A stretch of DNA of 64,000 nt, taken from positions 47,407 to 111,406 of the forward strand of contig JAJYCX010000002.1 in assembly GCA_021778015.1 (NCBI GenBank), in the 5' to 3' direction. Both the position numbers and the translations under genes were made by a program. This document shows, in pieces, positions 7,113 through 7,327 of this stretch; position 1 is the first letter of the stretch; every line of letters starts with the position of its first letter. This DNA comes from Pseudomonadota bacterium. GTDB lineage: Bacteria > Pseudomonadota > Gammaproteobacteria > UBA1113. The notes beneath the pieces were generated by a model. The model was not told where the DNA came from. It saw only the letters and a list, made by a program, of their open reading frames with translations, and searched no databases.

Positions 7113-7327
7113 TATACCCATTATACGTCAAGATGCGAGAACAATACTTTTTACGAATATAGTACTAATACGTTGTCATCCTCGACCAGGCCGCGAGGCC
7201 GCAGTCGGGGATCCAGAGAAAAGCCTATATGATCCTGGATCCCCGACCTTCGGTCGAGGATGACAAAGCTTCGATTCAAATCCATAGTATTCAGCTAGAT
7301 CTCGCATCTTCACTGGCGATGGGTATA
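7113..7327 (+). repeat. Family-1 palindromic element, full-length copy 2
   Basis: Terminal inverted repeats are TATACCCATTATACGTCAAGATGCGAGA and TCTCGCATCTTCACTGGCGATGGGTATA. The core hairpin is GTCATCCTCGACC...GGTCGAGGATGAC. Only 4 mismatches in about 153 nt against copy 45113..45268. Confidence 0.9.

Follow-up and report, generated by a model that had tools for sequence, protein, structure and literature searches.

The closest described relatives of the elements analysed here are the CGTC-tagged REPs (Di Nocera, De Gregorio and Rocco 2013, PMC3733652), defined by an unpaired CGTC tag (with TGTC and CCTC variants), a stem of 8-9 bp that almost always starts with AT, a loop of 4-5 nt and a CCA tail. 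They occur mostly as inverted dimers, often of unlike units, and lie between unidirectional or convergent genes near 3' ends, where they occasionally overlap the ends of coding sequences. Some of the dimers are nested within longer palindromes, and the superfamily takes in Neisseria dRS3 and Rickettsia RPE-4 and RPE-6. The class is reported to have no linked transposase, including no associated tyrosine transposase (PMC3733652).

Three other kinds of repeat are relevant. Correia (CREE, Neisseria) and ERIC-type MITEs are about 100-200 bp long, with inverted repeats of about 26 bp, long hairpin transcripts and promoter-like hexamers inside the element. TA is found at both ends of ERIC-type elements, and Correia elements likewise have TA at both ends. 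The REPINs of the REPIN-RAYT system (Bertels and Rainey) consist of two inverted REPs with a short spacer that fold as one long or two separate hairpins; they carry GTAG-type tags and accompany a flanked single-copy RAYT gene. QMITE2 of Coxiella burnetii (Wachter et al. 2018, PMC5896051) is 150-190 bp long and exists in full-size and REP-only versions; its GTAG-type REP core, a target of IS1111, sits between inverted repeats of 23-29 bp. It lies in 3' UTRs and intergenic regions, alters protein C-termini, is flanked by variable direct repeats of 7-11 bp, and gives transcripts that fold at about -100 to -113 kcal/mol. MITEs as a whole were found in 99.6% of Legionella genomes in one census.

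The DNA analysed here, referred to as the window, is a 64-kb stretch with a GC content of about 41% and a negative GC skew almost throughout. Its genes include polA, priA, corC, surA, rho, rdgB, a mevalonate operon and a eukaryote-like Ras GTPase. The exact CorC protein was found on metagenome contigs only, and its best named relatives are from Legionella species at about 66% identity, which identifies the source as an uncultured member of the Legionellaceae. The same CorC result led us to reject an origin in Coxiella, which GC and gene content had suggested.

The original prediction, made from the letters of the window alone, described a modular, MITE-like palindromic repeat, Family 1, in six copies of one orientation. 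All six were confirmed at the places proposed: BLASTN with the copy c7113 as query (copies are named by their first position) recovered 6/6, all in + orientation, and an nhmmer profile built from five copies gave no further copies in the window at E<1. The 12-mer GTCATCCTCGAC with up to two mismatches matched the window 13 times against 1.6 expected, a number reached in 0/100 shuffles, and 12 of the 13 matches are the two arms of the six copies. The modules described earlier are all present: c7113 and c45113 are 97.4% identical over 155 bp (BLASTN), that is, they show the predicted four differences; c5569 and c40945 have a loop module in common; and the extra self-complementary module CCTGTACTCGGTACTCCGGGTA occurs in c18271 and c42156. 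The copies and their parts are as follows.

7113..7327, + strand: copy c7113, complete (215 bp), flanked by the priA stop and the corC ribosome-binding site
7113..7140, + strand: left terminal inverted repeat of c7113; TA, then TACCCAT-N8-CAAGATGCGAGA
7300..7327, - strand: right terminal inverted repeat of c7113
7174..7216, + strand: long-loop REP unit of c7113, TGTC-ATCCTCGAC-CAGGCCGCGAGGCCGCA-GTCGGGGAT-CCAG
7235..7265, - strand: short-loop REP unit of c7113, TGTC-ATCCTCGAC-CGAAG-GTCGGGGAT-CCAG
5569..5779, + strand: copy c5569, between the convergent genes for the Ras-like GTPase and corC; left inverted repeat degenerate, right inverted repeat at 5752-5779
5628-5670 (+) and 5689-5717 (-): REP units of c5569
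18271..18508, + strand: copy c18271, a REP dimer inside a different shell
18323-18365 (+) and 18396-18448 (-; 27-nt loop): REP units of c18271
18304-18326 and 18480-18502: shell of c18271, an exact 23-bp inverted repeat that includes the TGTC tag
40945..41156, + strand: copy c40945, full length (212 bp), inserted at TA within the last codons of the FAA-hydrolase-like gene
40945-40972 and 41129-41156: inverted repeats of c40945
41006-41048 (+) and 41066-41094 (-): REP units of c40945
42156..42400, + strand: copy c42156; left inverted repeat at 42156-42183, right shell cut at the EamA stop codon (42388)
42216-42258 (+) and 42275-42305 (-): REP units of c42156
42311-42362, - strand: extra third unit of c42156, degenerate, in tandem
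45113..45268, + strand: copy c45113, lacking the left shell and beginning at the TGTC tag; between divergent genes
45115-45157 (+) and 45176-45206 (-): REP units of c45113
45241-45268: right inverted repeat of c45113
31366..31384, + strand: probable remnant of a right shell, AGCTTTTCTCGCATCTTCA, whose TCA is the rdgB stop codon on the - strand

Judged by its sequence, the core of Family 1 consists of two CGTC-type REP units, inverted relative to each other, whose tails face inward. Each arm reads, on its own strand, TGTC-ATCCTCGAC-loop-GTCGGGGAT-CCAG; the loop of the + strand unit is the 17-nt CAGGCCGCGAGGCCGCA, which contains GGCC-GCGA-GGCC, and that of the - strand unit is GAA, GCA or CGAAG (3-5 nt). 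In one variant the loop of the long-loop partner, which has an inner hairpin, measures 27 nt. The window holds 12 intact REP units and one degenerate unit. Among the intact ones the tag is TGTC in 11 and GGTC in the twelfth, the stem ATCCTCGAC/GTCGGGGAT has eight Watson-Crick pairs and one T.G in 10/12, and the tail is CCAG in 10 and TCAG in two. The T.G pair, at stem position 5, is found in every Family 1 unit. The units form inverted dimers in all six copies; the genes on either side are unidirectional for four copies, convergent for one and divergent for one.

This layout changes the meaning of the structure first described, a long hairpin bearing an asymmetric side hairpin with a GNRA-type tetraloop. 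Such a fold is indeed predicted, with an outer stem of 15 bp and an inner stem of 13 bp in place of the 13 and 10 bp proposed. Since the two arms share one layout of tag, stem, loop, stem and tail, the side hairpin is better understood as an extended apex belonging to one REP unit, and the long hairpin as an alternative pairing between the two inverted CGTC-type units; the palindrome is imperfect because only one unit's long loop forms a small hairpin of its own.

Covariation, for which the original prediction had proposed to look, was sought in metagenome contigs, using a search pattern in which three stem pairs and the nucleotide preceding GTCAT could vary freely. The matches listed comprise at least 124 units, with C or T before GTCAT in 105/124. 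Among these listed units stem position 3 is Watson-Crick paired in 101/124 (shuffled mean 34.8, maximum 50), and all four pair types occur there; position 8 is paired in 83/124 (shuffled mean 42.5), and position 5 in 70/124, with a further 28 G.T pairs. T.G at position 5, present in 26 of the 124, is a feature of several other families. Within Family 1, c18271 has G-C for A-T at position 8 in both units, and the right units of c5569 and c40945 have T-A for C-G at position 3, a change that keeps the unit hairpin and makes two mismatches in the inter-arm helix. The position-3 change is probably shared by descent, so that independent compensatory events within Family 1 are few. The REP stems covary across the wider superfamily and also within Family 1.

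Family 1 resembles the CGTC-tagged REPs in its tag, in its 9-bp stem starting with AT, in the CCA of its tail, in its dimers of unlike inverted units, in its positions near the 3' ends of unidirectional or convergent genes with occasional overlap of coding ends, in its nesting within a longer palindrome and in having no linked transposase. It differs in that one unit of each pair has a structured loop of 17 or 27 nt instead of 4-5 nt, and in that the pair is carried in an inverted-repeat shell with a TA duplication. The arrangement of the pair may differ as well: the tails of Family 1 point inward, and according to the paper head-to-head (HH) dimers predominate. The host also differs, being Legionellaceae; the word "Legionella" is absent from the text of PMC3733652. 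We found no description of Family 1 in the literature searched, and we conclude that it is a new family within a known kind, the CGTC-type REP dimer or MITE, and not a new kind of RNA gene.

The shell around the pair has its own regular structure. In most copies each side consists of a spacer of about 32 bp followed by a terminal inverted repeat, TATACCCAT-N8-[C/G]AAGATGCGAGA. The terminal inverted repeats, put originally at about 30 bp, are real, with a length of 28 bp and a bipartite make-up of 9 matched, 8 unmatched and 11 matched bases. All intact inverted-repeat ends are flanked by TA. The claim that c18271 is wrapped in an inverted repeat of its own also stands, at an exact length of 23 bp and not 25 bp. 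Terminal inverted repeats, a size of 212-215 bp, six copies and the lack of a transposase ORF are all features of a MITE.

The original prediction of a mobile, MITE-like repeat had been coupled to a proposal to compare relatives for presence or absence and for target-site duplications, and related uncultured Legionellaceae provided both. The priA-corC spacer, which holds c7113, measures 248 bp in the window, against 29 bp in L008 (from the same metagenome, with a CorC protein 90% identical to that of the window) and 27 bp in L011 (CorC 84% identical). These are empty sites; the right flank has 10 extra bases and the flanks have diverged, so that a TA duplication is ambiguous there. The clean case is the YCII-FAA site, where L134 and L137 have the empty site ACATTA-TA-TCCATTAC and the window has ACATTA-TA-[TACCCATTTC...CGATGGGTA]-TA-TCCATTAA, with c40945 in brackets and ends TACCCAT...ATGGGTA. 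Here the insertion runs exactly from one inverted repeat to the other and is accompanied by a TA duplication, the one site at which the duplication is clean. The same insertion swaps the C-terminus of the FAA-hydrolase-like protein from ...MDIISE* to ...MDIPIVLEEARSE*. At the site of c42156, the EamA and FAA genes of L135 overlap with no spacer. In 49 kb of L008, L011 and L135, largely syntenic with the window, there were no Family 1 units, and an exact 42-mer of the family was found in two other species-level MAGs with flanks unrelated to those of the window. The empty sites of relatives and the exact TA duplication establish that the unit of about 212 bp moves, or did so recently, as a non-autonomous transposon; its insertions are demonstrably present or absent among related species, and the family is limited to particular lineages. 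Within the species, L005 differs at 58 positions, all clustered in priA and none in the elements, so this comparison says nothing about constraint on the elements.

We therefore favour, with a probability of roughly 0.7, the reading of Family 1 as a composite MITE, non-autonomous and native to an uncultured Legionellaceae bacterium, with an inverted CGTC-type REP pair carried in a TA-duplicating shell. The unit of about 212 bp, from inverted repeat to inverted repeat, was inserted at TA and duplicated it, and a DDE transposase of the TA-duplicating sort, encoded elsewhere, would act on the shell in trans. This enzyme would be IS630/Tc1-mariner-like, TA duplication being typical of such elements, or would come from an IS5-family subgroup that makes duplications of 2-4 bp. 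Among known MITEs, QMITE2 comes near in length (150-190 against 212-215 bp), in the inverted repeats around a REP core, in its full-size and REP-only versions, in its locations and effect on C-termini, and in the energy of its fold (-100.8 kcal/mol predicted for Family 1). Identity with QMITE2 was rejected by reference to its published description (PMC5896051): the direct repeats are of 7-11 bp and not the 2-bp TA, and the REP is of GTAG and not TGTC/CGTC type; no IS1111 or IS110 transposase was found in the window. The resemblance to Correia and ERIC-type MITEs in size, inverted repeats, TA flanks, hairpin transcripts and internal promoter-like hexamers comes without any sequence relationship that we could see, and those elements, unlike Family 1, lack an internal REP pair.

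Several copies depart from the standard plan. The dimer of c18271 sits in a different shell, a REP pair in L002 is bare, c45113 begins exactly at the tag, and c42156 has gained a third unit. In L009 both intergenic sites beside corC carry a different REP pair, GTCATTGCGAGC...GCGAAGCAATCCAG, without the Family 1 shell. From the core-only copies, the other shell and the extra unit it follows that REP units also move or recombine by some second route, with the corC-adjacent spacers as hot spots. On the composite-MITE reading, the REP units would be reshuffled by this other route in addition to moving with the shell, which would account for the irregular copies. It counts against that reading that c18271, the bare L002 pair and the tag-cut c45113 do not fit simple movement of the whole shell.

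Shorter traces are also present. The solitary 13-mer described as matching the terminal inverted repeat after the rdgB stop is exact at 31372-31384 (BLASTN); on its own it does not rise above chance, with about 0.4 exact 13-mer matches expected per 215-nt query by estimate. The similarity at this place extends to AGCT...TCTCGCATCTTCA, and in the syntenic L135 the spacer is absent and rdgB overlaps the next gene. Short shell fragments lie exactly at stop codons, of rdgB in the window and of EamA in L137, and since these look like decay products the 13-mer is probably what is left of a right shell.

As originally stated, no transposase lies near the copies: among the 49 ORFs of at least 150 aa in the window, the sole exception is a YhgA/Rpn-like PF04754 protein at 26173-27168 with no apparent link to Family 1. 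A cognate transposase was found neither in the window nor in any related locus examined. In L001, a left inverted repeat at 7457 leads into an interior unlike that of Family 1 and then into the end of an ORF (DRAYKDVLTACLTQRRRWLWTSNL*) at the contig edge, an arrangement that could be an autonomous copy; the peptide had no Pfam match and no plasmid match. The full Family 1 element had no match in plasmids. In viral contigs the inverted-repeat pattern had no match, and the unit pattern picked out a single genuine REP dimer, of high GC, besides one chance match.

Movement like that of REPINs is the alternative that survives best, and we regard it as unlikely. It holds that the inverted REP pair is itself the mobile entity, copied by a single-copy RAYT-like tyrosine transposase of the Y1/HUH kind, which would use single-stranded DNA at replication forks, and that the shell with its inverted repeats is incidental. 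The pair does occur in another shell (c18271), bare (L002) and with an added unit (c42156), one copy is cut at the TGTC tag (c45113), and the REP units are predicted to fold as DNA too. GAA and GCA loops closed by C-G are unusually stable in DNA hairpins, which also counts for this view. However, the whole unit from inverted repeat to inverted repeat was inserted at the clean site, with duplication of TA; transposition of the IS200/IS605 Y1 type makes no duplication. No Y1 transposase was found in the window, where the GTAG-type tags and the flanked RAYT gene of the REPIN-RAYT system are likewise not seen, and CGTC REPs are reported without an associated tyrosine transposase (PMC3733652). The uniform orientation noted originally is true of the six window copies (6/6, two-sided p about 0.03), which lie in a region of uniformly negative GC skew, and would suit copying at the fork; it is not kept elsewhere, as two copies in L003 point in opposite directions although the genes around them run the same way, and in L001 and L002 the elements are oriented the other way relative to the genes. 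An orientation bias is therefore unproven, and a replication-linked orientation signal was not sustained.

The composite-MITE reading must also be weighed against a functional interpretation related to the one offered with the original prediction, in which Family 1 is an RNA element under selection (a stabiliser of 3' ends, a terminator or an sRNA, with a functional GNRA side hairpin) and its copy number reflects that function and not mobility. We consider this improbable. Five of the six copies do lie downstream of, or between, co-oriented or convergent genes, and effects of REPs and MITEs on mRNA have published precedent (PMC3733652, PMC5896051). The predicted fold is very stable, at -100.8 kcal/mol (z -9.2) for the whole element, and the core z of about -9 to -10 seems to speak for an RNA; yet the core reaches -61.3 kcal/mol (z -10.5) on the + strand and -62.7 kcal/mol (z -9.0) on the - strand, and the fold is equally strong as DNA, so that the architecture is not specific to RNA. 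Rfam 15 gave no match at gathering score in the whole window. Empty orthologous sites in close relatives imply that the neighbouring genes do not need the element, and the rewritten C-terminus at c40945 looks like a side-effect of insertion.

The GNRA motif itself fares no better. GGCC-GCGA-GGCC is kept in all Family 1 copies but c45113 (AGCC on the 5' side) and in all four long-loop units of the two other MAGs, which favours a function; but the GCGA loop exists on the + strand only (UCGC on the -), and in 4/6 copies both flanking genes lie on the - strand, so most neighbours would transcribe the other strand. Sister families in low-GC contigs have other inner hairpins, CCGA-CAAA-TCGG and CCGAT-GCA-ATCGG among them, and their loops, such as CAAA, GCA and AG, are not of the GNRA type. 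Because these inner hairpins differ, it is the extended tip that recurs across families and not the GNRA loop.

A terminator function was not borne out. No run of T was seen 3' of any copy, which led us to reject intrinsic termination, and none of the terminator-like sites in 5400-7500 and 40700-45500 coincides with an element. The fold on both strands, the missing T-tract and neighbours that mostly transcribe the non-GNRA strand together leave the terminator, sRNA and GNRA readings unsupported. The hairpin of Family 1, which would not serve as an intrinsic terminator, might when co-transcribed act at about -100 kcal/mol as an exonuclease barrier or RNase target, by analogy with REP/BIME and Correia elements; a passive effect on mRNA stability or processing, where the element lies in a 3' UTR or separates two cistrons, is plausible on that analogy. 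Three copies have a promoter-like ATGACA-17-TATAGT or CATAGT in the right arm, and that of c45113 faces a glutamine-amidotransferase gene. As such sites are no commoner than in shuffles, an element-borne promoter stays a weak lead from sequence.

That the copies are old and immobile, with the near-identity of c7113 and c45113 due to gene conversion between dispersed repeats, would fit the patchy, modular similarity, the loop modules shared pairwise and the match of c45113 to c7113 only from the tag rightwards, but is very improbable given the empty orthologous sites with a TA duplication, the absence of copies from 49 kb of largely syntenic related genomes and the identical 42-mer in other species with unrelated flanks.

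With Family 1 read as a composite MITE, a CGTC-type REP pair has insertion boundaries and a TA duplication that can be read from filled and empty sites, and the duplication around the pair bears on how this class spreads, a question since 2013. A second, unrelated family in metagenome contigs is built in the same way, with a long-loop REP followed by an inverted REP, both enclosed by inverted repeats and, outermost, by TA on either side. That the design recurs in two unrelated families hints at a general vehicle, and we tentatively suggest, as a conjecture that may well fail, that CGTC-type REPs, at least in low-GC lineages, spread as cargo or core of TA-duplicating MITEs by means of an ordinary DDE transposase. 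Under that conjecture, it may be owing to the structured long loop that the host tolerates the palindrome.

For annotation, Family 1 explains six long intergenic spacers and one altered protein C-terminus, that of the FAA-hydrolase-like protein. The family is lineage-specific, abundant here and absent from close relatives in the same sample, with the 42-mer common to other species; it should be useful for marking recent bursts or transfer of the element and is a likely cause of assembly breaks. Several spurious ORFs start within the Family 1 repeats.

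A second MITE family, about 128 bp long and with the ends TATACTCTTCGCATTTG... and ...CAGTTGG..TGAGTATA, is present in the window beside Family 1, and one further copy was located in L001, a contig outside it.

Copies of the second MITE family (window coordinates unless stated)
11882-12008 (-), copy of about 128 bp
25183-25309 (+), copy of about 128 bp
57733-57860 (+), copy of about 128 bp
11510-11568 (-), short form
55348-55413 (-), short form
42034-42157 (-), variant
L001 1496-1555, further copy

The ends were read at 57733-57860 and 42034-42157, and both copies are flanked by TA on each side; the latter adjoins the Family 1 copy c42156, the two elements having one TA in common. 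The ends of both families begin with TATAC, suggesting from sequence that the two may be served by related transposases. In L001, the last stretch before the contig end (7457-7568) has a left inverted repeat of Family 1 joined to an unlike interior and to the 3' end of an opposite-strand ORF (…TACLTQRRRWLWTSNL*). It is possibly an autonomous IS sharing the Family 1 ends, but the assembly breaks off at this point. A third palindromic element, TAACTACTTTCCGTTCCCTAACGGTTGC...GCAACCGTTAGGGAACGGAAAGTAGTTA (window 40850-40942), adjoins the Family 1 copy c40945; its orthologous site is filled in the relative's locus L135 and empty in L134 and L137.

The YhgA/Rpn-like protein is the sole window gene that carries a transposase label, and no link between it and the repeats was apparent. 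The RES-domain, HTH plus M78 and AAA_14/DUF4143 proteins are candidate toxin, defence or mobile-element genes.

Window genes
4908-5543 (+), eukaryote-like Ras/Roc GTPase, 211 aa, adjoining the Family 1 copy c5569
14645-15820 (-), AAA_14/DUF4143 ATPase
26173-27168 (-), YhgA/Rpn-like protein (PF04754, "Transposase_31", E 5.6e-47)
27410-28543 (+), HTH plus M78 (ImmA/IrrE-like) protein
63131-63799 (-), RES-domain protein

The position of the GTPase is occupied in a relative's locus by a 615-aa U-box plus Ras protein (L008 11463-13310), and both proteins look like Legionella-type effectors.

REP pairs were also detected in other genomes. In a related species (L009, GCA_009885935.1), both intergenic sites either side of corC (about 3800-4030 and 5345-5550) contain a non-Family-1 REP pair, (C/T)GTCATTGCGAGC...GCGAAGCAATCCAG ... 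CTGGATTGC...GCAATGAC. Its spacers measure about 100 bp and the Family 1 shell is missing, an arrangement that points to separate insertions into the same spacers. A family of about 170-185 bp, unrelated in sequence to Family 1, has the same composite design in seven contigs (L021, L050, L054, L060, L101, L122 and L129): TA, inverted repeat GAGTCTGTGTATAAA, a CGTC REP with the tip CCGA-CAAA-TCGG, an inverted REP, inverted repeat and TA. Five of these contigs end at or within the element, suggesting that it is present in many copies. A BIME-like cluster (L017 6656-6900) consists of a CGTC-type REP pair and, after it, three more fragments reading GAGGATGACA or GAGAATGACA, spaced at intervals of about 23-32 bp; such fragments number four in total.

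The right arms of three Family 1 copies contain promoter-like hexamers on the + strand (7260-7288, 42357-42385 and 45201-45229), with ATGACA or ATGATA separated by 17 nt from TATAGT or CATAGT. Those of c45113 point towards a glutamine-amidotransferase gene, whose ORF start (45170) lies inside the element; the true start is probably near 45307. A hairpin at 34612-34645, ATAGCCCAT-GATCTCGC-ATGGGCAAT followed by GACA, includes GATCTCGCAT, a sequence that also occurs unchanged within the right shell (spacer plus terminal inverted repeat) of Family 1; this may be a chance match.

In the comparison with the same-species contig L005, all 58 differences are confined to 400 bp of priA (7775-8180), the remainder of the compared 5.4 kb being without differences; the cluster marks a tract of recombination or else a chimera in the assembly.
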